A stretch of DNA of 64,000 nt from a virus (Duplodnaviria; Heunggongvirae; Uroviricota; Caudoviricetes), in the IMG/VR virus record IMGVR_UViG_3300037512_000782, positions 188,732 through 252,731 of that record. One strand, given 5' to 3'. A program made the translations under genes and the position numbers. The notes under the pieces were generated by a model. That model was not told where the DNA came from. It ran no database searches and worked only from the letters and a program-made list of their open reading frames with translations. Positions 4,429 to 53,978 of the stretch are shown here, piece by piece. Positions within the stretch are counted from its first letter, which is position 1. Each line of letters opens with the position of its first letter.

Positions 4429-4512
4429 AGTATATCCTATTGATTCTGATTGCAGTTTATATAAAAATGCGTCACCGATTCCGGCGACGCATTGTGTATA
4501 TGGTATTTTAGA

Positions 4513-6747: not shown

Positions 6748-6819
6748 AACAGTTACCGTGATTGTTTGAATTCAGTTTATCACTTGTCGAGTTAACGGTT
6801 ATTTACTATATTGGGCGGT

Positions 6820-7793: not shown

Positions 7794-8057
7794 ATGGCTA
7801 AGGCACCAGAAATTCGCAGTTCTATTGTTTTCGATGAAGTAAATGCTACGTTAAACCGTGTTCAGCTAGTGATGAACAATAGCGATGACCCAGTCGAAGT
7901 GTTTGTAGCTGCCCAAGTGAGTAATGTATTGAGCAATGTTATTGCCGACGTAGGAATGCTGTTGATGAATCCGTCGCTCGACGCGACTGCGGAACAGTTC
8001 GTGAAGGCGCTCAAAAAGCAGAATTCTGAAGAAAATCCCTTGCCAGAGGACAGGTGA
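7794..8057 (+). CDS. hypothetical protein
   Basis: 87-aa ORF, tightly packed with the upstream gene. Confidence 0.45.
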   Translation: MAKAPEIRSSIVFDEVNATLNRVQLVMNNSDDPVEVFVAAQVSNVLSNVIADVGMLLMNPSLDATAEQFVKALKKQNSEENPLPEDR

Positions 8058-8107
8058 TTTGCTATATTGCATAGCACATCAAAATGAACATCTAACAAGG
8101 AAATCTT

Positions 8108-8330: not shown

Positions 8331-8383
8331 TCGGTTGTAAAATTTCATAAACGGTGTACAAATCACTAAATAATTGCTATATT

Positions 8384-9465: not shown

Positions 9466-10206
9466 ATGACAGCAAAAGCGATTCGTGATCGGTTTCGTGA
9501 TGAATACCATCGTGCTAAACTCGCAATACCAACCCGTGACGTAGAAGCGGTCTACGTAGAGCAAGCCAAGAAGGGCAACAAGGCCGCACTGCGAATGCTT
9601 GTAAACAAGTACATTCCGTTCTTGTACAAGATGGCGAAGAAGCTCAGCGACGCCTCGTACAATCTGACCGAGGATGAAATGGTGAACGCTGCCGTGTTCG
9701 GTATGCAGAAGGCCGTGGATGCTTTTGATCCGACGCTGGGCATCGCCTTCTATACGTACTATGCGCCGAAGGCCATGAACGAAATGCGCAAGGCTGGCTT
9801 CGATAGCTTGCTGGTGCATCGACCGGAAAACCAGCTCAAGTCCAAGGACGTAAACAAGGTGTCCGTGGCGATGGTCGATATCGAGAAGCGCAACGACCAC
9901 GAGCTGTCCATCATGGATAGGCTGTCTAGCGGAATCGCCACCGATCAAGAGACCAAGGACAATGAGAACAAGGCCCTCGTTGACGAGTTCATGTCTCTGC
10001 TTCTCCCTACTGAACATGACGTAATGAGCCGTATCTACTTGTATGACGACGATGACGTGACTCTTCGCAGCGTAGGCACCGACCTCGGCGTGTCTCACGA
10101 ACGAGTACGCCAGCTCAAGGCGTCCGCTATCCGCCGCATCCATAATACTGCGAAGTACCATGACATGATGGCTGAACAAGCATATCTCCACAACGAGGCG
10201 ATATGA
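9466..10206 (+). CDS. phage-encoded RNA polymerase sigma factor, sigma-70 family
   Basis: Region-2-like segment LVNKYIPFLYKMAKKL ... GMQKAVDAFDPTLGIAFYTYYAPKAMNEM. Classic region 4.2 HTH at TLRSVGTDLGVSHERVRQLKASAIRRI. Confidence 0.8.
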   Translation: MTAKAIRDRFRDEYHRAKLAIPTRDVEAVYVEQAKKGNKAALRMLVNKYIPFLYKMAKKLSDASYNLTEDEMVNAAVFGMQKAVDAFDPTLGIAFYTYYAPKAMNEMRKAGFDSLLVHRPENQLKSKDVNKVSVAMVDIEKRNDHELSIMDRLSSGIATDQETKDNENKALVDEFMSLLLPTEHDVMSRIYLYDDDDVTLRSVGTDLGVSHERVRQLKASAIRRIHNTAKYHDMMAEQAYLHNEAI

Positions 10207-10691
10207 GAAACGACGACGAACTTCTGCAGTTGATCCGAGCCGACAAGCGCAAGAAAGTGGATCCGGTTCATATTGAGCTGAATATCTTTCCAGACAACAT
10301 GGGTGCCGACCATGAGGTATTCGCTGAAGAGCGAGTCGATCTCGATGTCGTTCGGTTCACGATGGATCAAGAGTCCATTGTCGCCCAGATCAAGATCGCT
10401 GCCAAGCTGGACGACTTTATCAGAAATCTGGAAAAGCTGCGCAGCAACTACGTCAAGCAGCTTGCGGTCGCCTATGGGCCGCTTATGAAGGAATTCTATA
10501 CCCAGTATAGCGCCGCATACCTCAAGAAGACTCCGGATCTGTTCGGAATGCGCCAAGTAATGGCGCATATCAGGACGTTTGCGAAGGAACTGGCCTTGCG
10601 TGAAGACAAAGATGAATCTATATTTGACGCTAGGCGTATTGAACGCGAACTTGCTAACTTGACGGAGGAACCCAATGGCAGTAATGATTAA
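10203..10691 (+). CDS. hypothetical protein
   Basis: 162 aa, ATGA overlap with the sigma gene stop. Confidence 0.5.
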   Translation: MRNDDELLQLIRADKRKKVDPVHIELNIFPDNMGADHEVFAEERVDLDVVRFTMDQESIVAQIKIAAKLDDFIRNLEKLRSNYVKQLAVAYGPLMKEFYTQYSAAYLKKTPDLFGMRQVMAHIRTFAKELALREDKDESIFDARRIERELANLTEEPNGSND

Positions 10692-11181
10692 TGGCGACAG
10701 CGTTGTGCGGCTGTTCGAGAACAACTTGTTCGACTACGACAAAGACCGCCAGTTGATGCTGTATAACGAGAATGGATTGAGCATGGAATTTTCAGTACCT
10801 TGGCTGAGCCTTGAGGTCGGTAAGACTTACGATTTAGCTAAGGTGCGATCCGTACTCGGCGAAATGATGCGCAATGTGCATCACACCGAGGCTATTCGGG
10901 ATAAGAAGAACGACCAGTCGTTTATGGAAACGCTGTCCAAGGAGATGACCGAGTTCGGTATGCAGCATATCGAAAATACAGAGTCATTCGCTTATGAAGA
11001 GGACGGAAAGTATTTATTCGGGTTCGACCTTGATTACATCCTCTCGTTGCTTGTGATAAACAAAGGGGAAACCGTCACGTCGTTGCTTACAGCTATGCGT
11101 GACTCCGAAAGAGATAAACGGAATAACACATTGGAAACGCGAGGTACAGACGATGGGAAGAAAACCGAAGAAGCAAATTAA
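10675..11181 (+). CDS. hypothetical protein
   Basis: 168-aa ORF. Confidence 0.5.
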   Translation: MAVMINGDSVVRLFENNLFDYDKDRQLMLYNENGLSMEFSVPWLSLEVGKTYDLAKVRSVLGEMMRNVHHTEAIRDKKNDQSFMETLSKEMTEFGMQHIENTESFAYEEDGKYLFGFDLDYILSLLVINKGETVTSLLTAMRDSERDKRNNTLETRGTDDGKKTEEAN

Positions 11182-13552: not shown

Positions 13553-13644
13553 GGATTACTCCTAAGCAATTAGTACAACAAGTTTATAACATTTTCAATC
13601 CCACGATTATATAAACTGCGTACATACAACAACGGATATACGAT

Positions 13645-21185: not shown

Positions 21186-21219
21186 TATATAAACTGCATA
21201 TACCAAACTGAGAGTGTAT

Positions 21220-43125: not shown

Positions 43126-43593
43126 GATATGTACACTATGGATATTTTTCTTAATATTACTAATCTATGATTAGAATGTCAAATGAGATGAGCCCCCATA
43201 CCCCCAGCCCACCTAAATTTTTGAAGAATATAGTAGGGGTATAATATGTAAATTTATTTTTATTTTTATGTACCCTGAAAAATAATCATGAAATGGACAG
43301 ACCATTTGCTGCTGGTGATACGAGCGGTGCTTGTCGTGCGAAGTCACTCATGGAACCCCAGGTTAACAAGAACAAGATTGCACTGCTCAGATGTGCCTTA
43401 CGGCGATTTAGCCTAGACTAACTTAGCCCTGGCTAACCTTGTGATCCTCGGCTAACATCGGACAGACTGCTCGCCTACAGATCCCCTTACGGCGTTTTGG
43501 ACTGGCACGAGTTCGGCGGGACTGCTTCCCAAGTGTATGCAAGCTTTGTCAAGCAACGACGCTTGATACGATACACCACTAACCAAAAGGGTT

Positions 43594-44388
43594 ATGACTA
43601 TGAAAAAGCTCAATCTCACCGTTCTCTCCAAGCTCTCCAACACGTTCGCTAGCCTCCGCTACTTCGGCGAGGTCAAGATGAACAAAAAGGCACGTGTCGC
43701 CAACGAAGTTCTCACCAAAGCTATCGCTGAACACGGTGGCAAGGTCGCCGAAGTCGGCTCGCCGTGTCCGTTCAAGACGGTCAAGAAAGCCAACACCTAC
43801 ACGGTGTCTATCGGTGCCAAGCTTCAGTATAAGCGCAAGGTCGAAGCCATGACTAAGCGCAACGGCGTTGAAACCGAATACCACCCAGAAGTGAGGAACT
43901 TGGGAATGTTCCCCATCTTCGGCGAACTCGTTTGGCTGAAGAATGACCTCAGTGAGGTCTACATTCGTGCCTATCAAGTTTCAAAGCCCAAGGCTGCTAC
44001 CTACTACGGTGACGGCGTTGTGGTTGCCAAGGAAAACATTGGGCAGTGGCTTCCGATTAAGGACTACAACACGGTCAGCGGTCTTGAAAATAATGTTTCT
44101 GTGGTCGCCACCGCAAGCGGTGAGGTAATTTATTGCCAAGACGAAAGCGGAAATATTATTAAGGATGAAAACGGCGAGCCGATGACTATGGCTCTTCCGG
44201 AAGTCCGCAGCTTGAAGCTCTCCAACATCGAACTCTATCGCAAGGGTGAAAAAATTGAATTTTTCACTGACGAAGAGTGGGATGACGCCGAACTCATCAA
44301 GATTCGCGACGAGTACCACGCAAGAATGGCGAAAGCGGCTGAAGCCTACGAAAAGGCGATGGCTGAAGCCCAAGCCAAGCAGAACTAA
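43594..44388 (+). CDS. hypothetical protein (alternative start 43600)
   Basis: First gene of the hyperplastic region; 264 aa, Ala/Lys/Glu-rich C-terminus. Confidence 0.55.
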   Translation: MTMKKLNLTVLSKLSNTFASLRYFGEVKMNKKARVANEVLTKAIAEHGGKVAEVGSPCPFKTVKKANTYTVSIGAKLQYKRKVEAMTKRNGVETEYHPEVRNLGMFPIFGELVWLKNDLSEVYIRAYQVSKPKAATYYGDGVVVAKENIGQWLPIKDYNTVSGLENNVSVVATASGEVIYCQDESGNIIKDENGEPMTMALPEVRSLKLSNIELYRKGEKIEFFTDEEWDDAELIKIRDEYHARMAKAAEAYEKAMAEAQAKQN

Positions 44389-44527
44389 CAACAACCGCCC
44401 CCAATATGGGGGCACTTTTATTTTTCATTTGTGTGGAAAATAAAAGTGTTTCCGTAGTGGTGTACGGTCGGACGGTAGCCCTTACTCCCAGGGTTGCCGT
44501 CTTTTTTATTTTGTACTCACACCCATC

Positions 44528-44581
44528 GGACTGGCACGGTTCCGACGGGGCTGCCGACGGCGGATATTCTGACTATGTAAA
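44528..44581 (+). promoter_or_regulatory. phage-specific promoter/stem-loop cassette (PeSL-like), copy b
   Basis: GACTGGCAC, then N8 CGGGGCTGCCGACG, then N14 TATGTAAAC, then CCAAAGGAGA and ATG 44599. Confidence 0.6.
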
Positions 44582-44598
44582 CCAAAGGAGATTTCAAA

Positions 44599-44796
44599 AT
44601 GTCCAAAGAAACCAAACAATTTGATATTGCAATTATGGACTACTCGGATGCTAGCATCCGCATTTTTACTCGCACCCTTCCGAAGGATATTCAAAGCGAG
44701 GAATTAGAGGAAATTCTGACCGCTGAAGGAATTTACAAGCAGTCCGAATGTTATTTCATGTACGCTGAAAAAATCAACATTATCAACGAGGTATAA
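44599..44796 (+). CDS. hypothetical small protein
   Basis: Preceded by cassette b and SD AAAGGAGA. Confidence 0.5.
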   Translation: MSKETKQFDIAIMDYSDASIRIFTRTLPKDIQSEELEEILTAEGIYKQSECYFMYAEKINIINEV

Positions 44797-44797
44797 A

Positions 44798-45124
44798 ATG
44801 CGTAAAATGTTGTTTACAATTCTTACTTTGTGTGCGCTCGCTTGCGCCACCGAACTACCTATTTGTGAAGAGTTCGAGGGCGAAAAGAATGTTTCGTGCG
44901 TAGCTGGCGACCGCCAAGCGGTCATTATCACCTATCACGCCGATGGGTCGCGGTCTTACGAGTATTTCAAGGACAACCGCAAAATTTATTTGGAATATGG
45001 CGAAAACTATGTTTATGCGTCCGATGGCAAGCGTAAAATAGATGTTAGCCCTATACCGAACGATGACCATATAGCGTATATAGACGAGCTATTTTATGGT
45101 CTAATAGATACTTTGGACTTCTAA
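44798..45124 (+). CDS. putative secreted protein or lipoprotein
   Basis: MRKMLFTILTLCALACATELP signal peptide with a lipobox-like LxxC. Coupled to the upstream gene (TAAAATG). Confidence 0.5.
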   Translation: MRKMLFTILTLCALACATELPICEEFEGEKNVSCVAGDRQAVIITYHADGSRSYEYFKDNRKIYLEYGENYVYASDGKRKIDVSPIPNDDHIAYIDELFYGLIDTLDF

Positions 45125-45126
45125 CC

Positions 45127-45150
45127 AAAGGGGCGCAAGCCCCTTTATTT
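45127..45150 (+). terminator. intrinsic terminator (GGGGCGCAAGCCCC family)
   Basis: AGGGGCGCAAGCCCCT hairpin with GCAA tetraloop, followed by TTATTTGG. Near-identical copies at 49515-49545, 50269-50292, 55662-55690 and 59163-59190, with variants at 46259-46292 and 46975-47000. Confidence 0.7.
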
Positions 45151-45267
45151 GGTCGCTATACGGTGTCAGACTGGCACGGCGATGGCGGGACTGCTACGCA
45201 GTCCTATTTTTATTTTGTAAGCCGATGGGGCTTACGAAAACGCCATTCTCAAAAGGAGATACGAATT

Positions 45268-46257
45268 ATGGCTTACAAAAAGACCGGAAAAACGGCTTCC
45301 CAAGTTGGGGAAGAAATCAAGTCCACCATTACATCCAAGTTCCTTGAATGCCTCGACAAGGGCTGTATCCCTTGGAGAGAACAGTGGAACCGCAGCGAAA
45401 GCGGCTTTCTGAAGAGTGACGGCAAGTCCTACTCGTTCTTGAACACTCTGTTGCTCGTCATTGACGGCTGCACGGAAGGCGAGTTCGTGACCTTGAACGG
45501 TATCGCTGAACGCTTGGGCATTGAACCCAAGGAAGCTTGGAACCACATCAAAAAGGGCGACAACGGCAAGGCTGTCCATGGTCACCATGTCTACTTCTAC
45601 ACCATGGTTCCTATCTACCTCAAGGAAGACGGCAAGGTAGTATACGAAAGGGACGCTCGTGGTCAGTTTGTCTTGGACTCCAAGGGCAAGAAGATACCGA
45701 AGATTAGCGGTCATTATCCTATGCTCAAGAGTTCGGTTGTTTGGCAAGTCGGCACTGAAGCTTTTTGTCCGACGAAGTTCGAGAAAAAGAAAAAAGTAGT
45801 CCACAACAATCCGATTGCGGTCGCTGAACAAATTATTGTTGACTATCAAGCTCGCGAGGGTGTCAAGATTGAATTCCGCAACGCCACGCCAGGATATTCG
45901 GATAAGCTTGACAAAATCTATATTCCGTCCATCAATGACTATCCGAACGCAAATATTTATTATTCGGATTTGTTCCATGAAATTGCTCACTCTAGCGGTC
46001 ATCCGAAAAGATTAAATCGTGACCTCGACAACCGCATGAAACGTGGTTCTTACTCTTTTGAAGAGTTGGTCGCTGAAATCTGTTCGTGTGCGATAATGCA
46101 CGACAACGGATTTGACACTCCGCAGTGCGACGAATTAAGTCAATCCTATGTAAAGGATTGGGCGAAAACTCTCAGAAGTGACCCCACAATGATTGAAAAA
46201 GCTTGTCGCGTGGCGGTCAAGGCTGCAAACTTTATCTACAACGGAGAAAAGAAGTAA
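45268..46257 (+). CDS. ArdC-like antirestriction protein (DUF1738 ssDNA-binding N-domain + zincin HExxH metallopeptidase domain)
   Basis: N-terminal ITSKFLECLDKGCIPWREQWN matches the DUF1738 core IxxxIxxLEKGxxPWxxPW. C-terminal FHEIAHSSGH has HExxH. ATG 45268 follows AAAAGGAGA; the track ORF starts at 45163. Confidence 0.7.
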   Translation: MAYKKTGKTASQVGEEIKSTITSKFLECLDKGCIPWREQWNRSESGFLKSDGKSYSFLNTLLLVIDGCTEGEFVTLNGIAERLGIEPKEAWNHIKKGDNGKAVHGHHVYFYTMVPIYLKEDGKVVYERDARGQFVLDSKGKKIPKISGHYPMLKSSVVWQVGTEAFCPTKFEKKKKVVHNNPIAVAEQIIVDYQAREGVKIEFRNATPGYSDKLDKIYIPSINDYPNANIYYSDLFHEIAHSSGHPKRLNRDLDNRMKRGSYSFEELVAEICSCAIMHDNGFDTPQCDELSQSYVKDWAKTLRSDPTMIEKACRVAVKAANFIYNGEKK

Positions 46258-46307
46258 GAAAAGGGGCTTCGCCCCTTTTCTTTTTATTTTGTGCTGATCG
46301 ATCCAGT

Positions 46308-46361
46308 GACTGGCACGGCGACGGCGGGACTGCCTCGACTGGATATTTTTTCTATGTAAAC
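46308..46361 (+). promoter_or_regulatory. PeSL-like cassette, copy d (upstream of radC-like gene)
   Basis: GACTGGCAC GGCGACGG CGGGACTGCCTCG ACTGGATATTTTTTC TATGTAAAC, then AAAGGAG and ATG 46376. Core to TATGTAAAC spacing is exactly 15 nt. Confidence 0.65.
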
Positions 46362-46375
46362 GAAAGGAGTTTAAT

Positions 46376-46972
46376 ATGAAAGACGCATTTGTTCTTATGA
46401 GCACTATTCTTGGCGATGAAAATGTTGCATACGATGTATGCAGATATTTAGAGGGACGTCAGACACCGCCCACGGTAGAAGAGCTTACTCATATTCACGG
46501 TGTCGGCGAGGCGACCGCCAATAAGGTTCTCGCTTGTATGGAATTGTCGGCGACCTATATGGTCGGCACGAATACAAAGGTGTTCAGCGACCCAGACGAT
46601 ATCGCTCGCCGCTTCTGTAACCTCAAGTATGAGAATCAAGAACACTTGTATGTTCTCACGCTCGACTCGGCTAACCACGAGGTCGGCTGTCACGAGGTCA
46701 CTTGTGGGCTGGTTAACCAGACACCGTTCCATCCTCGTGAGGTGTTGCGTTACGCCCTTATGGATAACGCTGTAAGCGTTGTTCTGTGCCACAACCATCC
46801 CAGCGGCTCGACTGACCCATCGCAGCAAGATTTGGGCATTACGAGGGTGCTGGCGGCGGCTTGCAAGATAATGCAAATTGCTTTCCTCGACCACGTGATA
46901 GTATCACGCAGCGGATTTTATTCAATTTGCAGAACTAATCCGGAAATTTTTGAAGCAACACTCAAGACCTAA
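46376..46972 (+). CDS. radC: RadC-like JAB-domain protein (UPF0758/DUF2466)
   Basis: Diagnostic HNHPSGSTDPSQQDLGITRVL (HNHPSG...PS..D JAMM-like motif). N-terminal helix-hairpin-helix THIHGVGEATANKVLA. Confidence 0.85.
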   Translation: MKDAFVLMSTILGDENVAYDVCRYLEGRQTPPTVEELTHIHGVGEATANKVLACMELSATYMVGTNTKVFSDPDDIARRFCNLKYENQEHLYVLTLDSANHEVGCHEVTCGLVNQTPFHPREVLRYALMDNAVSVVLCHNHPSGSTDPSQQDLGITRVLAAACKIMQIAFLDHVIVSRSGFYSICRTNPEIFEATLKT

Positions 46973-47015
46973 TCCAAAGGGCGAACGCCCTTTTTTAATT
47001 CATTATACGTCAGAC

Positions 47016-47069
47016 GACTGGCACGACGGCGACGGGACTGCCTCGACTGGATATTTATTATATGTAAAC
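47016..47069 (+). promoter_or_regulatory. PeSL-like cassette, copy e
   Basis: GACTGGCAC ... CGGGACTGCCTCG, N15 with TATT, TATGTAAAC, AAAGGAG. Confidence 0.65.
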
Positions 47070-47082
47070 GAAAGGAGCTTAT

Positions 47083-47238
47083 ATGGACATCAAGTTCATC
47101 ATTCTTGCTATTCTCTCGCTGTTCATCACGGTCAAGGTCTTCGCGTCCGCCAAGGCTCTCCCAGCCGTCGTCGGATTCTGTGGCGTGTTCGCCATGCTCT
47201 TGATTGCGTGGAATACTATTGCAGACAAAATTCACTGA
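47083..47238 (+). CDS. small two-helix membrane protein (51 aa)
   Basis: Not in the track. Cassette e and SD AAAGGAGC lie 6 nt upstream. The product MDIKFIILAILSLFITVKVFASAKALPAVVGFCGVFAMLLIAWNTIADKIH is hydrophobic. Confidence 0.4.
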   Translation: MDIKFIILAILSLFITVKVFASAKALPAVVGFCGVFAMLLIAWNTIADKIH

Positions 47239-47270
47239 ACACAAACAACCTAACCAAGGAGTAAAAACAA

Positions 47271-47552
47271 ATGAAACTCATTGCATTTTTTGCCGCGCTC
47301 GTGCTCGCTGCTTTCATCTTCTTTGGCTGTGACGCCAAGACAAAAGAAGCTGGTGACAAGATGGCCGAGGCCACAAAAGAATTAGTTAAGACGGCGCTCA
47401 CCGAAGCCGCCGACACCGCCAAGGCCAAGGCCGCCGAGGCTGCCGATGTCGCCAAGGATAAAGCAGCAGAAGCCGCCGAAAAGGCCAAGGTAAAAGCCAA
47501 GGCCAAGGCTGCCGAAGCTGCCGAAGCCGCCGCAGAAGCTCTTAGAAAATAA
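47271..47552 (+). CDS. Ala/Lys-rich secreted protein or lipoprotein
   Basis: Signal peptide ending FFGC, then KAKAAEAA repeats. Terminator 47568-47600. Confidence 0.55.
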   Translation: MKLIAFFAALVLAAFIFFGCDAKTKEAGDKMAEATKELVKTALTEAADTAKAKAAEAADVAKDKAAEAAEKAKVKAKAKAAEAAEAAAEALRK

Positions 47553-47833
47553 AATAACACGGCATGGGCTACGCCGAGGAGTAGCCCACCTTTTTATTTG
47601 GGACTCTATAACATGGCTAAATCAAGCAAAATTATCACGGTGCGCACCACTAAGCGCGTGGGCGGTCGATAATGAAAGTCGATATCGTATACATCAAGTT
47701 GACCCCAGTCGAGGGCGCGTGGTGGCGCAAGATCGCTAGCAAGAAGAAGTAGACTGGCAAGAGCTTGGCGGGACTGCTCCCCAAGCTTATTACATCTATG
47801 TAAGCAGTTGAACCCCTAACCAAGGAGATTGAT

Positions 47834-48352
47834 ATGGGTTTTGCAAATCCTAAAGGTCGCTACCATGTAGGGCCTAAGAAGAAGACACGCTCTCGCAAGT
47901 TCCACAAGCCTATCTGTGACGAAGTCAAGCAGACAAGTGGTCTCAATCCGATGGACGAAGCCACCGTCAAGGTGCTTAGTCAGATGGACGATACTGCCAT
48001 GGGCGAGTTCGTCATGGCGACCGCACATCCGAATCCGAAGGATGTGGTCATCATCAAGGAGAATGGCCGTGTCAAGCCTCTCGTGCTTGATGACAACGAT
48101 GAGCGTCAGACCAACCGTGGGCGTGTCTATGTCGGTCTCGGTGGTGTCGGTGTCGGTCTCGGTGTCGGTCTCGGCTCTCGTCCGACCGAACGCCACGATG
48201 ACGATGACCGCGAACCCGTGGTGGTCATTCCGACACGCACCGCAAGGGTCGCTACTCCGACTCCGAAGGTCACGGCTCCGCAGACCGAAGGCGAGATTGT
48301 GGGCTACATTATCAAGAAGCCGAATGGCGAATTGGTTTTGAAGCTCAAATAA
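47834..48352 (+). CDS. hypothetical protein
   Basis: Cassette f plus SD AAGGAGA. Contains VGLGGVGVGLGVGLG low-complexity. Terminator 48366-48400. Confidence 0.55.
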   Translation: MGFANPKGRYHVGPKKKTRSRKFHKPICDEVKQTSGLNPMDEATVKVLSQMDDTAMGEFVMATAHPNPKDVVIIKENGRVKPLVLDDNDERQTNRGRVYVGLGGVGVGLGVGLGSRPTERHDDDDREPVVVIPTRTARVATPTPKVTAPQTEGEIVGYIIKKPNGELVLKLK

Positions 48353-48432
48353 ACTTCGGTCGCAAATGGCTAGGGTTGCTCCCTAGCCATTTATTTTCTA
48401 TCTTTCACCCTCAATTAAAGGAGAAATAAAAA

Positions 48433-48804
48433 ATGAAAAAGACAATCCTAGCAATTCTTTTGTTTGCAGTGCTCGCCCTCGCTGAAAACTTTAATACCGA
48501 CAAGGGTCTCGTCACCGTATCTAAGAACAAGTACGGCACGGAATATGTTTTGCATCCCTCGGCTCCGCTCGCTGGTCTCGGTGATGTCAAGCGCATTGAA
48601 ATGAACGAGTGCAGCGACTTCAAAAACATTATTATTACCTACAATGACGGTACGGTACAGCAGTACAGCGCAGACGGCGACAAGACGCCCACGATGACTA
48701 TACAGCGCGACGACCGCTTTATATCGTGGGAAAATATAAGTGCGAACAAGTTTGCTAAAGCGTGGCGAACCTACAGCAAGATATTCCAGGGCTACACCGC
48801 ATAG
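48433..48804 (+). CDS. secreted hypothetical protein
   Basis: Signal peptide MKKTILAILLFAVLALA. SD AAAGGAGA. Confidence 0.55.
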   Translation: MKKTILAILLFAVLALAENFNTDKGLVTVSKNKYGTEYVLHPSAPLAGLGDVKRIEMNECSDFKNIIITYNDGTVQQYSADGDKTPTMTIQRDDRFISWENISANKFAKAWRTYSKIFQGYTA

Positions 48805-48931
48805 GGTAGCCCCCTTTTTTGTAGGGATCGATCCGGACGACTGGCACGACGGCGACGGGACTGCTCCGCTGGTGTATTATATTCATGTAAGCAAGAGAGC
48901 TTACGGCTACACCACTCACAAGGAGTTTTAT

Positions 48932-49513
48932 ATGTCAAGAAGACAATCGACTAGCGAAACCGAATCTCTGAACTATGTATGGACTGATTCCGTGGACTTG
49001 ACCAAGAGCAAGTCCTACGAGACCGAACGCAACGACGACGGCAACGAGGTGTTCATCTTCTGTGGCAAGGAGGTCTACGAGAAGCTGGAGTGCGGCAACT
49101 CCAGCGCCACCAAGGACATCGTGGCTGGGCTGCTGGGCTGGCTCGCTCAAGGCGACAGAGGCGACGCTGGTAGCGTCGAGGTCAACGGCTGGTACGAACC
49201 GCCTACCTACTGCTGGAGCGACCCCAGCTGCTCCGACCCAGGCGACGGCGACATCACGAGCGCCATCGTATCGCTGGCTACTGGACTGGAGGACAGCTTC
49301 AGAGAGGACATCGACCTCTACTTCAAGGACATCAGCGAACTGGACGCTGAAGCTCTCAAGACTATGGACATCGACGCCATAATCGAGAAGTGCCGAGAAG
49401 TCAAGGGCGAAAACAAGAACTGGAACGCCAGTGCCAAGAAAGTTTACAATAGGTTCCCCAAGCTTCTCGCGGAAGAACTTTATTCTGAACTTGATGGTAA
49501 GGACATTCTTTAA
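48932..49513 (+). CDS. hypothetical protein
   Basis: Start moved to ATG 48932, which follows cassette g and SD AAGGAG. Track ORF starts at 48740. Confidence 0.55.
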   Translation: MSRRQSTSETESLNYVWTDSVDLTKSKSYETERNDDGNEVFIFCGKEVYEKLECGNSSATKDIVAGLLGWLAQGDRGDAGSVEVNGWYEPPTYCWSDPSCSDPGDGDITSAIVSLATGLEDSFREDIDLYFKDISELDAEALKTMDIDAIIEKCREVKGENKNWNASAKKVYNRFPKLLAEELYSELDGKDIL

Positions 49514-49514
49514 T

Positions 49515-49545
49515 CAAGGGGCGCAAGCCCCTTTTTATTTTATTT
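49515..49545 (+). terminator. intrinsic terminator (GGGGCGCAAGCCCC family)
   Basis: AAGGGGCGCAAGCCCCTTTTTATTTT. Confidence 0.7.
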
Positions 49546-49637
49546 GTGATCGATCCGGACGACTGGCAGTCCAGCGACGGGGCTGCCTCTACTGGATATT
49601 TTATTTATGTAAACAAGTTCAACCAAGGAGTTATCCA

Positions 49638-49940
49638 ATGTACAAAATTCAAGTTATGCCGTTCCGTGGCGCGATGTACGCCATCAATGTACTCAACACT
49701 GACACCAACAAGCAGTGCAAATTTATGGTAGGCGTCGATACTACCGTGGGCTACGCCAATGGTCAGAGCAAGACGCTCGACGCTGGCGGACATACGCTGA
49801 ACATTGATAGCCGCTCTCCTACTCCAGGCTTCGCACCCAAGAACGAGATGACCAAGGACGAAGTCAAGGCGGAGTTCGACGCCATGTGTACGGCTATCGC
49901 CGAAGATTTTACCAAGAGCTTAACCACAACCAAGGAGTAA
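49638..49940 (+). CDS. hypothetical protein
   Basis: ATG 49638 after cassette h and SD AAGGAG. Confidence 0.5.
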   Translation: MYKIQVMPFRGAMYAINVLNTDTNKQCKFMVGVDTTVGYANGQSKTLDAGGHTLNIDSRSPTPGFAPKNEMTKDEVKAEFDAMCTAIAEDFTKSLTTTKE

Positions 49941-49943
49941 ACT

Positions 49944-50120
49944 ATGCTGAAAGTATGGCGTGAAGTGAAACAAGTCTGTGCCCTCGCTGGGTTCAAGTAT
50001 CTAGGCCGTGACGACTTTGCATTTGCAAAGAAGCTGCTGGCCGCTGGCAAGAAGCCGAGAGAGATAGCCAATAGGGTTCTCGACTCTATCTATGGCCTTG
50101 AAAAATGTTACGACTGCTAG
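49944..50120 (+). CDS. small protein (58 aa)
   Basis: Not in the track. SD AAGGAG overlaps the previous stop. Product is MLKVWREVKQVCALAGFKYLGRDDFAFAKKLLAAGKKPREIANRVLDSIYGLEKCYDC. Confidence 0.35.
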   Translation: MLKVWREVKQVCALAGFKYLGRDDFAFAKKLLAAGKKPREIANRVLDSIYGLEKCYDC

Positions 50121-50420
50121 GGGCTGCCATGATGACCAAGATAATTAAAGTCAAGGTGAACGGACGGATAGAAGATATTACCGTGACCGTGGGCATGAGA
50201 AAGGTGGAACCGCAACCGCAACGGTCTCGCTTCCGTCTGCCCAAGTTAGGAATGTTGTTTCACTGGTAAGGGGCGCAAGCCCCTTTTTTTCGTATAGGCG
50301 CTTTACAATTCGCACGGATCGATCGATAATAACTGTAGAGACTGGCACCGCGACGGCGGGACTGCTCTCGACATGTATTATATTTATGTAAACGATACAC
50401 CACTTAACAAGGAGTTCAAC

Positions 50421-50840
50421 ATGGAAGTATCTGTTGTTTCTCGCACCGATTCTGAACACCGCATCCTTGAGAGTGTCCACTTGGACAAGCACGAGGCTGA
50501 AGAAGCTCGCCTCGCCATCGTCAAGCGCTACAAGAATGCGCCTCACCTCTGCACCGACACGGAGACGGACAGCTTCACCGTCGATGTGTGGGTGGCTACC
50601 AAGGTCAAGGCGACCAAGGACGGCCAAGCTCCGGAGACGACGGTGCTCGCCGTCGGCAGCCAGCGCAAGTGCGAAGGCGCAGCAGCCCTCGAAGTGGCGT
50701 CGCTGGAGCGCTTCGTCAACGGCGAGGTCGAGGGCGACGCTGACCACGGCTGGACGGCGACGGACGACGACACTGGAGCCACCTACACGGTGCAGCTGCA
50801 CCACGGCTCCGCTAACCCTTTAATCACCATTGGAGGCTAA
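50421..50840 (+). CDS. hypothetical protein
   Basis: ATG 50421 after cassette i and SD AAGGAG. Confidence 0.5.
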   Translation: MEVSVVSRTDSEHRILESVHLDKHEAEEARLAIVKRYKNAPHLCTDTETDSFTVDVWVATKVKATKDGQAPETTVLAVGSQRKCEGAAALEVASLERFVNGEVEGDADHGWTATDDDTGATYTVQLHHGSANPLITIGG

Positions 50841-50841
50841 T

Positions 50842-50991
50842 ATGGCTAACTTCGAACAGTATCTGAAAGAACAGCATAACATGACCATCAGCGAATATCA
50901 AGCGCTGGACAACGACACGAGACTCGGTTTTCTCCGTGGTCATCAGATGTTCAATATGCTTGAGCTTCTTGATAAGGTCAGAAGCCGTTAA
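50842..50991 (+). CDS. small protein (49 aa)
   Basis: Not in the track. SD GGAGG lies 8 nt upstream. Terminator 51001-51034 follows. Confidence 0.35.
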   Translation: MANFEQYLKEQHNMTISEYQALDNDTRLGFLRGHQMFNMLELLDKVRSR

Positions 50992-51000
50992 TAAAATTTT

Positions 51001-51034
51001 GGTGAGTATCAACATGATACTCACCATTTTATTA
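51001..51034 (+). terminator. intrinsic terminator
   Basis: GGTGAGTATC-aacat-GATACTCACC followed by ATTTTATT. Confidence 0.65.
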
Positions 51035-51101
51035 ACACTTTATCAACAAGATCTCAACAAAATATTAAACATTATTCACCATCTATCAACAAGGAGGCCG
51101 T

Positions 51102-51374
51102 ATGGCCAAGCTCTATTATCTCGAAAACTCGGTTCCTACATACAACGACCAAGCTAAATATTTTGTTAGTGGTAGCGATGCTAGTGGCGAACACTACAAC
51201 GGTGCGAGCGATTTGCTGAACGCTCGATTCTTCTTTGACGAGGAAGAAGCGAAGCGCTGTATTCACACGGCAAATAATTGGTGGCAGAAGTACGACTTCA
51301 AAGTCAAGTCCATTGAAATCACCGAGCTTCAAAGCTTGATGGCGAAGAAGAAAGATTCATTCATACTTATCTAA
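51102..51374 (+). CDS. hypothetical protein
   Basis: SD AAGGAGG; 90 aa. Confidence 0.5.
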   Translation: MAKLYYLENSVPTYNDQAKYFVSGSDASGEHYNGASDLLNARFFFDEEEAKRCIHTANNWWQKYDFKVKSIEITELQSLMAKKKDSFILI

Positions 51375-51379
51375 CTGGA

Positions 51380-51426
51380 TGGACGACGACGGGGCTGCCT
51401 CGCCGTCGTATTTTTGTTGTACGAAC
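51380..51426 (+). promoter_or_regulatory. PeSL-like cassette, copy j
   Basis: GACGACGAC-GGGGCTGCCT-CGCCGTCGT: covarying stem around the conserved loop. N15 then TGTACGAACC, then AAGGAG. Confidence 0.6.
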
Positions 51427-51443
51427 CTAACAAGGAGTTGACT

Positions 51444-51734
51444 ATGGTTGATATGAATACACCGCTTGCACCGGAAATTGAAGCTGCTCTCGCCAAACTG
51501 GACGACGGCGAGGTCATTGAGTGTGACATCAAGTATAAGGATAACGGCGAACTGCGCACTGGCGTATCGATAGCGTTGCACGGCGACGACTGCCAAGACG
51601 GTAGCGACGACGATATCTTCTTCTACTGTGACAGCTTGAACGACTTCAGAGCGCTGCTCAAAGAGGACAACGGCGAGGACTTTGTGGTCGTCGGCTTTGA
51701 CAACGGCAAGGAAGGAGGAAGCTGGCATAGCTAG
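51444..51734 (+). CDS. hypothetical acidic protein
   Basis: Cassette j plus SD AAGGAG. Confidence 0.5.
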   Translation: MVDMNTPLAPEIEAALAKLDDGEVIECDIKYKDNGELRTGVSIALHGDDCQDGSDDDIFFYCDSLNDFRALLKEDNGEDFVVVGFDNGKEGGSWHS

Positions 51735-51744
51735 CAGACTGACA

Positions 51745-51791
51745 TCCGGACGGCGAGGCTGCCTCGTCGTCCTATTCCTTCTATACAACCT
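51745..51791 (+). promoter_or_regulatory. PeSL-like cassette, copy k
   Basis: GGACGGCGA-GGCTGCCT-CGTCGTCC, then TATTCCTTC TATACAACC, then AAGGAG. Confidence 0.6.
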
Positions 51792-51806
51792 CAACAAGGA
51801 GCTGCT

Positions 51807-52280
51807 ATGAAACTGGAATATAAGGTGGACAAGGTATCGTTGACCATCGTGAAAGTGCCGTCTGATTATCGTGAATGTTCTGTTTGTGGACACTGGAAAC
51901 CGTTTAGCGAGTTCTGTAACCAGCAAGGAGTAATGACACGCACGAACTGTTCAGACTGCTACAATATGCCGTTGGAAGATATGCGAGCGCTGTCCAAGCA
52001 GACAAGCGATTTTATACGCGCCCATCGTGTGGACATTTACAACATTTCTGAACGTGTCACTACTGGTAGCCAGTTGATGACCAAGAGAGCTTTCTTGGAA
52101 CAGATAACCGAACAGCTAAAGGATATCGGCGACAACGAGCTTGTGCATGCGGTATATGATACCTATGACCCAGACGGCTATTCATGTAAGGAACCATTGA
52201 ATAACTTGTCGGTAAACACAAAGCGCACCAAGATAGAACTGGATGTTCCGACAGACATCGTCCAGGTCACTCTCTGCTAA
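51807..52280 (+). CDS. hypothetical protein with Cys4 zinc-ribbon-like motif
   Basis: CSVCGHW ... CSDCYN. Cassette k. Confidence 0.5.
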   Translation: MKLEYKVDKVSLTIVKVPSDYRECSVCGHWKPFSEFCNQQGVMTRTNCSDCYNMPLEDMRALSKQTSDFIRAHRVDIYNISERVTTGSQLMTKRAFLEQITEQLKDIGDNELVHAVYDTYDPDGYSCKEPLNNLSVNTKRTKIELDVPTDIVQVTLC

Positions 52281-52285
52281 CTGGC

Positions 52286-52332
52286 TACTGGACGACGGGG
52301 CTGCCTCGTCGTCCTATTATTTCTATACAACC
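52286..52332 (+). promoter_or_regulatory. PeSL-like cassette, copy l
   Basis: GGACGACG-GGGCTGCCT-CGTCGTCC, then TATTATTTC TATACAACC. Confidence 0.6.
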
Positions 52333-52350
52333 TAATCAAGGAGCTTGAAA

Positions 52351-52908
52351 ATGAAACGAGTAAATGTAGAAGTCAAGGGCGTTATCTCTCTTATGATTGA
52401 TGACGATGCAAATGTGGAAGATGTTCTCACCCATGCGACACTGGTGGATGTGAAGCAGTCAACTGTGATTGAATCCCACGAGGTCAGTGAAGAGGCACTG
52501 GACTGGGCCGTCTACTACAACGAGAAGTACGGCGTACTGCTCCAGATGGTGCTGGGTTCCGGCTCCAACATCTCCGACGAGGACGGCCAGTACATCAACG
52601 GCGTGTTCGTGACCTACGACCAGGACATCGTCGGCTCTACCTACAGTATCAGCGCCGAGCTTGCCAAGGAGCTTCTGGAAGGTAAGCACGAGGTAGACGG
52701 CTCTTGCGACGGCGTTCTGACCATTGACGGCAATGACCTTAATGTCGAGGATTCTGGCGACGACGACCAGGACTACGAGGCACAGTGGGTAGGCTATCAG
52801 AAACAGATGGGCAACATCGGACACCGTGAATGTTTGGTTGGCTACCTTGACCTCATCGGCTACAACAGCAATGAGGCGGACGACTGGAAACTGGTTGCGA
52901 AGGGCTAA
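52351..52908 (+). CDS. hypothetical acidic protein
   Basis: Track start 52345 is TTG; the ATG is 52351. Cassette l. Confidence 0.5.
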   Translation: MKRVNVEVKGVISLMIDDDANVEDVLTHATLVDVKQSTVIESHEVSEEALDWAVYYNEKYGVLLQMVLGSGSNISDEDGQYINGVFVTYDQDIVGSTYSISAELAKELLEGKHEVDGSCDGVLTIDGNDLNVEDSGDDDQDYEAQWVGYQKQMGNIGHRECLVGYLDLIGYNSNEADDWKLVAKG

Positions 52909-53027
52909 AGAATGGGGCGAGTGCCCCATTTTTTATTTGTTCGCCGATCGATCCGGACGACTGGCACAGCAGCGACGGGGCTGCCTCGACTGGATATTTT
53001 ATCTATGAAACCAACAAGGAGATTACC

Positions 53028-53432
53028 ATGGCTAAGAAAATCATTAACAAAGAAATTGAATTCGTTCAGAAAGCAAAGGCTATTGTGTTCGAGTCTAACC
53101 AAGATTCGCTGGCGAGCGCTAAGGCTGGCGATACGCTGGTCGTCGATGACCAGTACGGTATCGAACACGGTAAGTGGCTCTCGATACGGTCTGGCGACGA
53201 GTTCAGAGTGAAGTTCGTGGACACGCATAACCCCTTGATGAAGCCAGTCTACATCGTGGTCGTGACTAAGGCTCCGTCTGACGGTGGCTATTCTCCACGC
53301 CACAAGGTAGGCGACGAGCTTGAAATCAGCGAGCACATGCCGTTGTACGCCCACATCCACAAGAAGAACGACCCCACATTGGCGACAAGGCTCCGCAAGC
53401 TCTGCCGAGACTACCTCGACGGACTGCTGTAG
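53028..53432 (+). CDS. hypothetical protein
   Basis: Cassette m plus SD AAGGAG. Confidence 0.5.
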   Translation: MAKKIINKEIEFVQKAKAIVFESNQDSLASAKAGDTLVVDDQYGIEHGKWLSIRSGDEFRVKFVDTHNPLMKPVYIVVVTKAPSDGGYSPRHKVGDELEISEHMPLYAHIHKKNDPTLATRLRKLCRDYLDGLL

Positions 53433-53489
53433 CGACGACGGGGCTGCCCAGCAGCCCTATTCCTTTATTGTAACCAACAAGGAGCTACT

Positions 53490-53936: not shown

Positions 53937-53978
53937 GATGACGGGGCTGCCTCGCAGCCCTATTCATTTATTGTAACC
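53932..53978 (+). promoter_or_regulatory. PeSL-like cassette, copy o
   Basis: GACGGGGCTGCCTCGCAGCCC (the core pairs with GCAGCCC), then TATTCATTT ATTGTAACC, then AAGGAG. Close copies n (53430-53476), p (54610-54656) and q (55138-55184). Confidence 0.6.

Follow-up and report, generated by a model that had tools for sequence, protein, structure and literature searches.

Next to nothing is known of how huge uncultured phages organise their transcription, and a sigma factor encoded by one of them raises the question of which promoters it reads. The 64,000 nts of DNA analysed here (the window) come from a clade with three separable promoter-like classes, namely a host-type class with an extended -10 box (class I, TTGMCN-17-TGnTATATT), a hairpin cassette and the short motif KATAAACTK (motif III). 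The clade has one compact sigma factor, and its reading heads lend themselves to comparison between lineages. If this factor could be assigned to one of the classes, a first temporal map would result for a group of phages of 250-450 kb, and it would become clear whether RpoD-like phage sigma factors mimic the host sigma or have a new specificity. It is reasonable to expect that this factor redirects transcription to promoters of a non-host class, and the initial annotation had paired it with the cassette, whose GC-rich core was placed at the position of a -35 box.

The ORF in question encodes a genuine sigma-70-family factor of an uncultured phage of ~348 kb. Phage sigma genes are in themselves nothing unusual, and this one is the tenth in a run of small genes on the + strand from 6811 to 11717. 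Regions 2 and 4.2, already recognised by the initial annotation, were confirmed by Pfam (Sigma70_r2, PF04542, residues 45-108, 25.1 bits for a cut-off of 24; Sigma70_r4, PF04545, residues 179-225, 32.2 bits for a cut-off of 24.1) and by a match to PHROG 351 'RNA polymerase sigma factor' (E 3e-25). In addition, a profile of the family matched RpoS, RpoH and SigA chains of the PDB (E 1e-18 and weaker), and the AlphaFold model of the ORF has a sigma fold, with sigma-S, sigma-32 and SigA as top Foldseek matches. Core RNA polymerase binding and promoter-specific initiation are its predicted functions.

In the AlphaFold model, sigma-2 is helical over residues 10-113 (pLDDT 80-90). Its 2.3/2.4 segment, FYTYYAPKAMNEMRKA, does not contain the W433/W434 pair of sigma-70, and the residues of region 2 are kept in the family alignment (A1) and in an ortholog of 43% identity. 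The following linker, with a pLDDT below 50 at residues 114-136, aligns with the region 3.2 'finger' of RpoS (HMM alignment, RpoS residues 208-321), and only ~12 residues separate the 'LLVHRP' segment from the 3.2-like segment. The protein is composed of sigma-2, a finger-like linker and sigma-4, with neither region 1.1 nor a folded sigma-3. The sigma-4.2 recognition helix, SHERVRQLK, aligns with LTRERVRQIQ of RpoS; it departs from TRERVRQI of RpoS and RpoD at two positions only, those of T583 and R584, and keeps E585, R586, R588 and Q589. Residues S210, H211, E212, R213, R215 and Q216 are invariant across 16 homologs.

Among NCBIfam models, only that of the superfamily level is passed (TIGR02937, 59.7 bits for a cut-off of 42.9, residues 41-227). 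Scores fall below the cut-offs of the RpoS family models (54-56 bits for 379-394), of RpoD_Cterm (44 for 354) and of the group 3 models SigBFG (55 for 234), FliA_WhiG (49 for 190) and RpoH (49 for 323), and the sigma-3 domain of groups 1 and 2 (RpoD, RpoS) is missing. By its TIGR02937 match and its AlphaFold model, the protein has the two-domain sigma-2/sigma-4 build typical of group 4 (ECF), with a 4.2 helix that is RpoD-like and not ECF-like; no GGAAC-like -35 or CGTC-like -10 ECF boxes were noticed among the recurrent promoter-like motifs of the window (repeat families and upstream regions). A late sigma of the T4 gp55 type, consisting of region 2 only, was ruled out by the presence of region 4.

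The gene is conserved and syntenic in a clade of uncultured metagenomic phages of 245-393 kb (possibly 446 kb). Its homologs form 22 clusters at 53-96% identity, and the same surrounding gene order is found in the relatives L095, L097 and L228 and in L225, which carries the 43%-identical ortholog. The family is narrow: a search of 1.84 billion clusters gave only 10 representatives at E 1e-30. In searches of cultured phages, megablast of positions 8000-12000 gave no match and tblastn of the sigma gave a single weak fragment and no other homolog, and a protein-pattern search of IMG/VR retrieved no relative. The two overlapping genes that follow the sigma gene keep their order in every relative (L095, L097, L225, L228), and their products are possible partners of the factor. 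Neither has a PHROG or a significant Pfam match, the closest being a sub-threshold match of the 162-aa protein to Met_synt_B12 (E 0.007, 16.3 bits for a cut-off of 25). A Pfam scan of ten proteins of the sigma operon found no MotA, AsiA or anti-sigma domain.

The gene was described as lying in the host-promoter-driven part of the genome, which holds: class I promoters of the sigma-70 type, at 6784, 8040 and 8355, drive the sigma operon (Table 1). Sites orthologous to the first have the -35 boxes TTGCCG (L095, 7352), TTGCCT (L097, 7350) and TTGCGA (L225, 14900), and those orthologous to the second are found at L095 8558 and L097 8585. As a side observation, TTGCCN -35 boxes are frequent in the lineages with an SH helix and absent in the lineage with a CR helix (C and R at positions 210 and 211). 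A tracking of His211 by TTGCC-type boxes was not usable, the sites being too few.

Table 1. Coordinates of the sigma gene, its neighbours and the promoter-like elements in the window.
Feature	Position	Strand	Description
Motif III, TATAAACTG	4453..4461	-	Upstream of 152-aa gene 3970-4428(-)
Motif III, GATAAACTG	6773..6781	-	Upstream of 744-aa gene 4513-6747(-)
Class I promoter, TTGTCG-17-TATATT	6784..6812	+	Head of the small-gene operon with sigma
Class I promoter, TTGCCA-17-TGcTATATT	8040..8068	+	Within the operon, 1.4 kb upstream of sigma
Class I promoter-like, TGTACA-17-TGcTATATT	8355..8383	+	Just 3' of terminator-like hairpin 8295-8321
Sigma-70-family gene	9466..10206	+	ATG-started ORF, 246 aa
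Sigma region 2	9598..9789	+	Residues 45-108, Pfam Sigma70_r2
Linker replacing folded sigma-3	9805..9909	+	Residues 114-148, short, low-confidence
Sigma region 4	10000..10140	+	Residues 179-225, Pfam Sigma70_r4
Sigma-4.2 recognition helix, SHERVRQLK	10093-10119	+	S210-K218
Two overlapping genes directly 3' of sigma	10203..11181	+	162 and 168 aa
Divergent motif III pair	13580..13618		TATAAACTT on - for 593-aa gene, TATAAACTG on + for 812-aa gene
Motif III, TATAAACTG	21188..21196	+	Upstream of 447-aa ORF 21214-22557
Array of ~30 cassettes	43500..63592	+	Each directly upstream of a small gene
Hybrid cassette, no hairpin	55708..55761	+	Perfect TTGACA-17-TATATT (55719), TATATT over positions 17-22
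Second hybrid cassette	59207..59260	+	TTGACA-17-TATATT (59218), core GGGATTGCC

The cassette is a real, non-random and non-canonical promoter-like module. Allowing up to 2 mismatches, CGGGRCTGCCTCG has 29 matches in the window for 2.6 expected, and GACTGG-N12-GGGRCTGC has 21 exact matches for 0.01 expected. All copies are on the + strand, mostly upstream of ORFans, and the array begins 33.3 kb beyond the sigma gene, in agreement with the 33 kb reported initially. Numbered from the first G of GGGRCTGCC (position 1), each cassette comprises GACTGGCAC at -17 to -9, a GC hairpin, GGGRCTGCC at 1-9, TATT at 19-22, a T-rich run, TATRYAAMC at 28-36, an A/C-rich leader, AAGGAG and ATG. The strict spacer noted at first is borne out by a spacing that is rigid in all 29 aligned copies, but the exact degenerate pattern fits just 10 of them. 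Similarly, the description of the module as PeSL-like stands for its layout of stem-loop, Shine-Dalgarno and start, with uninterrupted stems of at least 6 bp in 24 of 28 cassettes of the window and a mean folding energy of -13.3 kcal/mol, but not for its promoter, since near-consensus sigma-70 -35 and -10 boxes occur only in the hybrids at 55719 and 59218, the former of which recurs at L105 19456. In 27 of 28 aligned copies (a set that includes 55719 and not 59218), the -35 position matches TTGACA at no more than 4 of 6 bases, and when the -10 box is set at 17-22, cassettes have no A at -11; for these two reasons, they need a non-host factor. A search of IMG/VR with the cassette DNA pattern returned 94 single chance matches (L001-L094) and no array, and a search for known RNA families and tRNAs found none.

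The core lies at the tip of hairpins that differ in register from copy to copy (i+j = 12, 20, -4, 18, 16). It is degenerate in L103 (P0012 lineage), which has an identical sigma-4.2 helix, and becomes GGGYTTCCCC in L226, of the L225/L226 lineage with the 43%-identical sigma, in which S210 and H211 are replaced by C and R. The CGGG, YATY and TATRYAA elements are conserved in all lineages. The geometry of Shine-Dalgarno sequences and leaders was computed over 94 cassettes: the Shine-Dalgarno core begins no later than position 40 in 32 of them and no later than position 42 in 42, the earliest being at 33. Twelve leaders contain a hairpin whose first paired base is exactly G31, built from six different stems (for example GTAAGCC/GGCTTAC, GTAAAGC/GCTTTAC and GTAAGGC/GCCTTAC), and two or three hybrid copies place the -10 box of TTGACA-17-TATATT over positions 17-22. 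Because Shine-Dalgarno cores start so early and leader hairpins begin at 31, the 5' end of the RNA probably lies within TATRYAAMC, at positions 29-31, and on the same geometry TWTRYAAMC could not be the -10 box. With this start, the core, initially assigned to the place of a -35 element, would fall at -30 to -22, 4-6 bp too near the -10 box for a -35 of the sigma-70 family.

Other known promoter types were considered for the cassette and rejected. In an N4-type hairpin promoter the loop centre is 11 nts from the start, compared with ~23-25 nts from the start deduced here, and the hairpin register varies. GACTGG as a -35 box would be 28 nts from YATT and 37 nts from TATRYA. A sigma-54 reading of CTGGCAC...YTGC would have a GG-to-GC distance of 20 bp, not 12, and a reading of TATACAAC as a B. 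subtilis sigma-E-like promoter is ruled out by spacing and start-site geometry.

The cassette had been regarded as the only non-host promoter-like motif, and the factor as having no obvious cognate promoter nearby. However, KATAAACTK occurs five times in the window, at 4453(-), 6773(-), 13580(-), 13610(+) and 21188(+), so that the sigma operon is flanked by sites, at distances from the sigma gene of 2.7 kb (upstream) and 3.4 kb (downstream). Together with class I, this makes two other promoter classes no further than 3.5 kb from the gene. All five sites are intergenic and oriented toward a start codon 20-35 nts away, although their number by itself has weak significance (five sites are reached in 2 of 100 shuffles). 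The site at 4453 is conserved at orthologous positions in L095, L097, L228 and L225; that at 6773, back to back with the promoter of the sigma operon, has its ortholog at L228 7215(-), the divergent pair is found in L095, L097 and L228, and the site at 21188 corresponds to L228 18959. A variant form is located upstream of the amidase gene. Motif III has neither a conserved -35 partner nor a -10-like box upstream of ATAAAC, and shares RYAAMC with the cassette.

The explanation preferred here, tentatively and at somewhat less than even probability, is that of a compact TTG-type sigma factor and of cassettes that are not read through their GC core. Because the gene lies behind TTGYCN-17-TGcTATATT promoters (6784, 8040, 8355), it would be transcribed early by the unmodified host RNA polymerase, and its product would then compete for the host core enzyme. 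The -35 reading head appears to be of the RpoD/RpoS/RpoH kind (xERVRQ). It is established that residues R584, E585, R588 and Q589 of sigma-70 read TTGACA and that RpoH, with AERVRQ, reads CTTGAAA (Gardella 1989; Siegele 1989; Campbell 2002). From such a head it follows that the promoters of the factor should have a TTGA/TTGC-type -35 box ~17 bp from the -10 box, and within the window only the TTGMCN-17-TATATT class would fit. TTG-type promoters are hence the best guess for its targets, and its proper regulon may lie in the 82% of the genome outside the window. This helix-to-box rule is carried over by homology, and some change of specificity is expected since the position of R584 is occupied by His. 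The cassettes would be PeSL/PmSL-like composite modules, in which a terminator-like hairpin of variable register, topped by the 'core', precedes a -35-less promoter made of YATT at about -12 to -9 and an initiator-like TATRYAAMC, with the RNA starting at R. Their reader is more likely to be something other than the sigma-4 of this factor, such as an ACTGGC/CGGG activator, another sigma or the host sigma with a helper. Several points stand against this explanation. A phage sigma of class I specificity looks redundant because its own gene depends on class I promoters, which the host already reads; the TGn extended -10 box of class I is read by region 3.0, which appears to be missing in the modelled protein; and the cassettes clearly need a non-host factor, while this sigma is the sole recognisable transcription protein in the 64 kb.

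The pairing proposed at the outset, in which the factor on host core activates the cassettes as a middle-mode switch, either unaided or together with a partner, for example the products of the two following genes, remains a doubtful alternative. The abundance and non-canonical nature of the cassettes speak for it, as does their co-occurrence with the sigma in every lineage examined, i.e., the window, the 254,016-bp (P0193, L105), 76,946-bp and 74,422-bp contigs and the 392,869-bp scaffold, but co-occurrence is uninformative inside one syntenic clade. (A supposed case of cassettes without sigma on the 254-kb contig was dismissed, P0193 of the P0009 sigma cluster being encoded there.) Formally, CTGCCT (5-10) lies 17 bp from TATRYA (28-33) and resembles the TTGCCA -35 box of class I, the conserved cassette elements CGGG, YATY and TATRYAA parallel conserved contact residues of sigma-2 and sigma-4, and S210/H211 change to C/R in the lineage with a changed core. 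However, comparison of the region 4 specificity residues with the core identified SHERVRQLK as a helix of the TTGA-reading type, not of a type for GGGRCTGCC; the core is degenerate in L103 despite an identical helix; and in L226 the G at -33 (in the register of the initial annotation) becomes C, yet R588 and E585 are unchanged. A -10 box at 28-33 would furthermore place starts within the Shine-Dalgarno sequence or beyond it in one third to one half of the cassettes, and inside the conserved leader hairpins, besides leaving the core too near the -10 box. The strict form of the pairing, with CGGGRCTGCCTCG as -35 and TWTRYAAMC as -10, is opposed by the helix type, the lineage-specific core at the hairpin top and the geometry of ribosome-binding site and leader. 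On the evidence of sequence, which argues against the GC-rich core as the -35 box of this sigma, the pairing is weakened and less likely than initially proposed.

It is unlikely that the factor instead reads KATAAACTK as a late-type sigma, the motif being then a -10-only, T4-late-like promoter before the larger flanking genes. The five exact sites, their intergenic position, orientation and distance from start codons, their conservation in L095, L097, L228 and L225, and the conservation of sigma region 2 across the same lineages are consistent with such a reading; among known promoters, the T4 late promoter TATAAATA resembles the motif most, and the RYAAMC common to both motifs means that one reader could serve motif III and the cassettes. 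On the other hand, a motif without a -35 partner leaves the strongly conserved, DNA-contacting sigma-4 helix unexplained, the sites number only five, and such promoters are read elsewhere by a minimal gp55-type sigma with gp33, which could be encoded outside the window. A further reading, which appears quite improbable, is that the cassettes and KATAAACTK represent a new -35-less architecture (YATT, initiator TAT|RYAAMC, upstream ACTGGC box and lineage-specific hairpin top) read by host core with the sigma-3-less sigma and a lineage-specific partner, which could be one of the two genes after sigma. If true, it would be a MotA/AsiA-like or hairpin-assisted mode not described for phage sigmas. 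Finally, it is very improbable that a phage-encoded polymerase reads both motifs through start-proximal sequence, leaving the sigma another or a minor role, for example competition with the host sigma. The non-virion polymerase of phiKZ recognises TATG and T7-like enzymes recognise -17 to +6; YATT-N5-TAT|RYAAMC extends from about -12 to about +6 relative to the probable start, and motif III has no -10-like box. However, the window contains no DFDGD signature and no Pfam polymerase domain, its large unknown ORFs having no Pfam match, and T4-related group-2 jumbo phages, which carry both minimal and RpoD-like sigmas, reportedly have no polymerase of their own (PMC7824862).

The preferred TTG-type sigma can be compared with phage sigmas of known function. 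In Bacillus phage SPO1 and coliphage phiEco32, gp28/gp34 and gp36, respectively, switch the host polymerase to middle or late promoters. The logic is alike, with host-type early promoters followed by a sigma that redirects host core. However, their -35 and -10 reading residues are diverged and matched to clearly different boxes, whereas the -35 helix of the present factor hardly departs from that of RpoD/RpoS, and no novel -35 box to match it was seen. T4 late promoters are read by gp55, gp33 and gp45. Motif III is like them in being -10-only, A/T-rich and located before larger genes, but differs in sequence (AAAC versus AATA), and this sigma has a full region 4, which gp55 does not have. The minimal gp55-type sigma acts with gp33 at promoters of this kind in T4-type and group-2 jumbo phages (PMC7824862).

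In contrast to T4 middle (MotA) promoters, the cassettes have no TGCTT box but a lineage-variable GGGRCTGCC at ~-30 to -22, and MotA and AsiA domains were absent from the ten operon proteins scanned. PeSL and PmSL cassettes have been described in T4-type phages (Arbiol 2010, PMC2839356; Comeau 2014, PMC4122927), and share with the present ones a stem-loop, promoter and Shine-Dalgarno sequence that recur ahead of small ORFans within a hyperplastic region; in the PmSL variant, an activator box is paired with a TATTAT-like -10. Here, only 2 of ~30 cassettes have sigma-70 -35 and -10 boxes, while in the others the boxes ACTGGC and CGGG are accompanied by a -10-like block (YATT) and a conserved block at the start site (TATRYAAMC). 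Compared with the RpoD-like sigmas of group-2 jumbo phages (Iyer, Anantharaman, Krishnan, Burroughs & Aravind 2021, PMC7824862), the present factor is shorter, has no folded sigma-3 and forms a narrow family. Both are nevertheless sigma-70-family proteins of very large T4-related genomes, are thought to use the host core polymerase and have a sigma-4 helix near that of cellular primary sigmas.

The ORF called as a sigma factor encodes a protein in which Pfam places Sigma70_r2 at residues 45-108 and Sigma70_r4 at residues 179-225, both slightly over their gathering scores, and which matches PHROG 351 (E 3e-25). The sole NCBIfam model that it passes is the superfamily TIGR02937 (59.7 bits, cut-off 42.9); against the RpoS, RpoH, SigB/F/G, FliA/WhiG, SigK and RpoD models it scores 40-56 bits and does not reach their cut-offs of 190-394. 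A profile of 16 homologs matched the solved structures of RpoS (E 1e-18), RpoH, SigA and FliA. The AlphaFold model (mean pLDDT 76) is confident for sigma-2 (10-113) and sigma-4 (160-226), joined by a low-confidence linker (114-148) with no folded sigma-3 domain, and was matched in Foldseek by sigma-S, sigma-32 and SigA chains. In the HMM alignment, the 'LLVHRP' segment leads almost at once into a region-3.2-like stretch. Hence the call as a phage sigma-70-family factor is confirmed: the ORF is a real sigma of two-domain architecture, whose sigma-4 is nearest in sequence to those of primary and stationary-phase sigmas.

No close relatives of the window were found among GenBank phages or in IMG/VR, and its gene content indicates a very large phage of the myovirus type. 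Its vWA-type protein shares about 30% identity with a protein of Ackermannviridae and 100% with one encoded on a metagenomic contig of 348,092 bp. Other genes encode a DHH phosphoesterase, an SPFH protein, an amidase and auxiliary functions, namely NAD salvage (NAMPT and Nudix/NMNAT), UDP-galactopyranose mutase and tRNA repair (Thg1 and a CCA-adding enzyme), the last despite the absence of tRNA genes from the window. Homologs of the sigma form 22 clusters at 53-96% identity, in metagenomes only; their contigs reach 243,638, 254,016 and 446,223 bp, and a 43%-identical ortholog holds the syntenic position on a 392,869-bp scaffold. As only 10 proteins among 1.84 billion cluster representatives reached E 1e-30, the family is narrow. 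The gene order common to all lineages is vWA - DHH - small genes - sigma - 162 aa - 168 aa - large gene(-) - large gene(+) - Thg1 - amidase(-) - glf. Two further ORFs share PHROG 20046 and look like homing-endonuclease-type insertions; the first has a sub-threshold GIY-YIG match (22.2 bits, cut-off 22.6) and sits where the GC content of the window is lowest (16-20 kb, 43-44%). An array of paralogous genes, also found in three relatives (L100, L105 and L226), occupies a GC-richer stretch (56% vs about 50%), and no function was found for its genes.

Features of the window, and of the repeated cassette (positions counted from the first G of the core)
Feature	Position	Strand	Context
Sigma gene	9466-10206	+	ATG start, 246 aa, good codon score
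KATAAACTK	4453-4461	-	before 152-aa gene
KATAAACTK	6773-6781	-	before 744-aa gene
KATAAACTK	13580-13588	-	before 593-aa gene; back to back with 13610 site
KATAAACTK	13610-13618	+	before 812-aa gene; back to back with 13580 site
KATAAACTK	21188-21196	+	before 447-aa ORF
Sigma-70-type promoters	6784, 8040, 8355	+	ahead of and within the small-gene run holding sigma
Tandem 41-nt duplication	16080-16161		AAAAACCTATATTTGG in each copy
Auxiliary metabolism genes	23606-26151, 16337-17236, 28086-29378, 19986-21185	-, +, +, +	
PHROG 20046 ORFs	17266-18915, 41974-43125	-	
Paralog array	37451-41870	-	tandem, about nine genes of 150-190 aa; repeat D12 at 40373 and 40876
Non-coding gap (~450 bp)	43230-43500		between divergent - strand block and first cassette
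Cassette array	43,500-63,590	+	about 30 copies
Intrinsic terminators	45128, 49516, 50268, 52912, 55663, 59163		six near-identical, AAGGGGCGCAAGCCCCTT then T-run, interleaved with cassettes
Hybrid cassettes	55719, 59218	+	
Last cassette	63590-63625	+	leader of (CAATCAA)n repeats before ribosome site
First box, GACTGGCAC	cassette -17..-9		
Core, GGGRCTGCC	cassette 1-9		
TATT	cassette 19-22		
T-rich run	cassette 23-27		T26 in 23/26 copies, counted by eye
TATRYAAMC	cassette 28-36		
Leader	cassette 37 onward		A/C-rich, then AAGGAG and start codon
Hairpin register	i+j = 12		core enclosed by flanking arms
Hairpin register	i+j = 20		5' arm is the core itself
Hairpin register	i+j = -4		core pairs with first box
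Hairpin register	i+j = 18, 16 or 11		other lineages

The initial annotation had described the sigma gene as lacking any candidate promoter nearby and the cassette as the only non-host motif, and both statements fail because KATAAACTK sites lie near the gene. The five sites in the window are all intergenic and oriented towards a start codon at a distance of 20-35 nt, and the motif recurs at orthologous intergenic sites in the four relatives that share the sigma synteny (L095, L097, L228 and L225). This third promoter-like motif stands before the larger genes. It has the look of a -10-only element akin to the T4 late promoters, and the RYAAMC part of the cassette is matched by its ATAAAC. The sigma gene, tenth in a series of small genes on the + strand, is also adjoined by class I (TTG-type) promoters, whose form in the window and all relatives is TTG(A/C)CN - 17 - (T)(G/A)C TATATT; nearly all have TATATT as their -10, frequently with the TG of an extended -10. 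The host polymerase must be able to read class I promoters, since the sigma gene itself relies on them. Upstream of the Thg1 gene, a tandem duplication creates a pair of class I -10 boxes. Where the sigma 4.2 helix begins Ser-His (window, L095 and L097), TTGCCN is a common -35 variant, but it is absent from the 8 class I sites of the Cys-Arg lineage (L225); the sites are too few to call covariation.

The cassettes, which begin about 33 kb after the sigma gene, are all on the + strand, in an invariant register. The first box is often abutted by the stop codon of the preceding gene, and an independent terminator precedes some copies. Neither a + strand gene nor a good class I promoter lies upstream of the first cassette (43,518), so transcription must be able to begin from the cassettes themselves. 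They are followed by small genes, mostly ORFans, which include one ArdC/zincin-type anti-restriction protein and one GP88-family protein. Two sub-types co-vary, GGGACTGCY with TATGTAARC (43.5-50.4 kb) and GGGGCTGCC with TATACAAMC (51.4-63.6 kb), which may reflect local duplication, gene conversion or the existence of two promoter sub-classes. The gap before the array, with its TATAAT-ATGTAAAT element and its repeats of CTTACGGCG(A/T)TTT and GGCTAAC, could be a small RNA or regulatory region. The leader of the last cassette is reminiscent of CAA-rich translational enhancers.

Cassette loci of relatives were reached through ArdC homologs (L100, 64% identity; L103, 54%; L105, 52%; L226, 39%), and each has an array in the register of the window. 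The consensus lines of all five lineages keep ACTG(G)C, C0-G1-G2-G3, YAT(T/C) at 19-22 and TATRYAA at 28-34, while the remainder of the core is lineage-specific: the window, L100 and L105 have GGGRCTGCC, L226 has GGGYTTCCCC, and L103 has a degenerate core (GGTACTGCC, GATATTGCA, GGGCGTGAA, GGGGCCGGA and others). Most cassettes form an uninterrupted 6-13 bp stem between the first box and YATT (mean folding energies -10 to -13 kcal/mol), with the conserved core as its GC-rich top, and the pairing register varies from copy to copy. Since the hairpin is always present without a fixed register, it looks like a structural, terminator-like element rather than a surface for fixed protein-DNA contacts. 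Position 19 is the usual end of the stem in the window, and the T-rich run comes next, hence many copies were flagged by the terminator scan.

Shine-Dalgarno geometry over 94 cassettes of the five lineages bears on where the RNA begins. The Shine-Dalgarno core starts at or before position 40 in 32 cassettes and at or before 42 in 42, the earliest at 33, with the earliest start codon at 46. Twelve leaders carry a stable hairpin in which pairing begins exactly at G31, in six different stems that include compensatory pairs (GTAAGCC/GGCTTAC, GTAAAGC/GCTTTAC, GTAAGGC/GCCTTAC, GTCAAGC/GCTTGAT and GTAGGGC/GCTCTAC), which is the pattern of a 5'-terminal stabilising hairpin. In three hybrids (two in the window, one at 19456 of L105) the hairpin is lost and a perfect TTGACA-17-TATATT puts its -10 over positions 17-22. 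Taken together, these observations lead us to infer a start at about 29-31, inside TATRYAAMC. From such a start it would follow that YATT is the -10-like element (about -12..-9), that the core lies at about -30..-22, 4-6 bp too near the -10 for a -35, and that the first box lies at about -48..-40. A sigma-70-family -10 at 28-33 would instead put the start at about 39-42, in or beyond the ribosome site and in the leader hairpins.

The pairing of sigma and cassette had been proposed with the core as -35 and TWTRYAAMC as -10, and CTGCCT-17-TATRYA does formally have a -35/-10 geometry. The sigma-4.2 recognition helix, V-S-H-E-R-V-R-Q-L-K, argues otherwise. Across 16 homologs (53-96% identity) S210, H211, E212, R213, R215 and Q216 do not vary; the helix reads C-R-E-R-V-R-Q in the 43% ortholog, and SHER(V/I)RQ is often kept in more distant members. 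Against T-R-E-R-(V/I)-R-Q of RpoS/RpoD, the phage helix differs at the first two positions only. Helices of this type read TTGA-containing -35 elements, as known from the genetics of sigma-70 R584 and R588 and from the Taq sigma-4/-35 DNA structure, and RpoH, with AERVRQ, reads CTTGAAA; judged by its residues, the phage helix would thus give no reason to expect GGGRCTGCC. With the -35 set at cassette positions 5-10, the window has CTGCCT as its box, L226 has TTCCCC, and L103 has TTGCAC or a degenerate version. The -33 base changes from G to C while its canonical partner residues are unchanged. Arg replaces His at the residue that canonically faces -31, and both lineages have C there; this is the opposite of the covariation that the pairing predicts. 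With the helix type, the lineage-variable core and the start geometry all pointing the same way, it is very improbable that the core is the -35 of the phage sigma.

That cassette transcription requires the sigma by some other route is less remote, if still unlikely. The cassettes plainly need a non-host factor, their invariant parts parallel those of the sigma, and the sigma seemingly lacks region 3.0, so the TG of class I promoters would not be usable by it. Sigma and cassette arrays also co-occur in every lineage; however, within one syntenic clade everything co-occurs. The TTG-type promoters are the best guess for the sigma regulon, a tentative one. The observation in the initial annotation was largely right and its interpretation only partly supported, while the specific -35/-10 assignment is disfavoured.

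Phage sigmas that redirect the host core are well known, for example SPO1 gp28 and gp34 or phiEco32 gp36, and the phage-encoded sigma is itself of this known kind. Group-2 jumbo phages reportedly lack a polymerase of their own and carry both minimal and RpoD-like sigmas plus gp33 (PMC7824862). T4-type phages have composite stem-loop/promoter cassettes, PeSL, and a variant, PmSL, in which an activator box accompanies a TATTAT -10 (PMC2839356, PMC4122927). The cassette of the window is a like module, but with unusual boxes.
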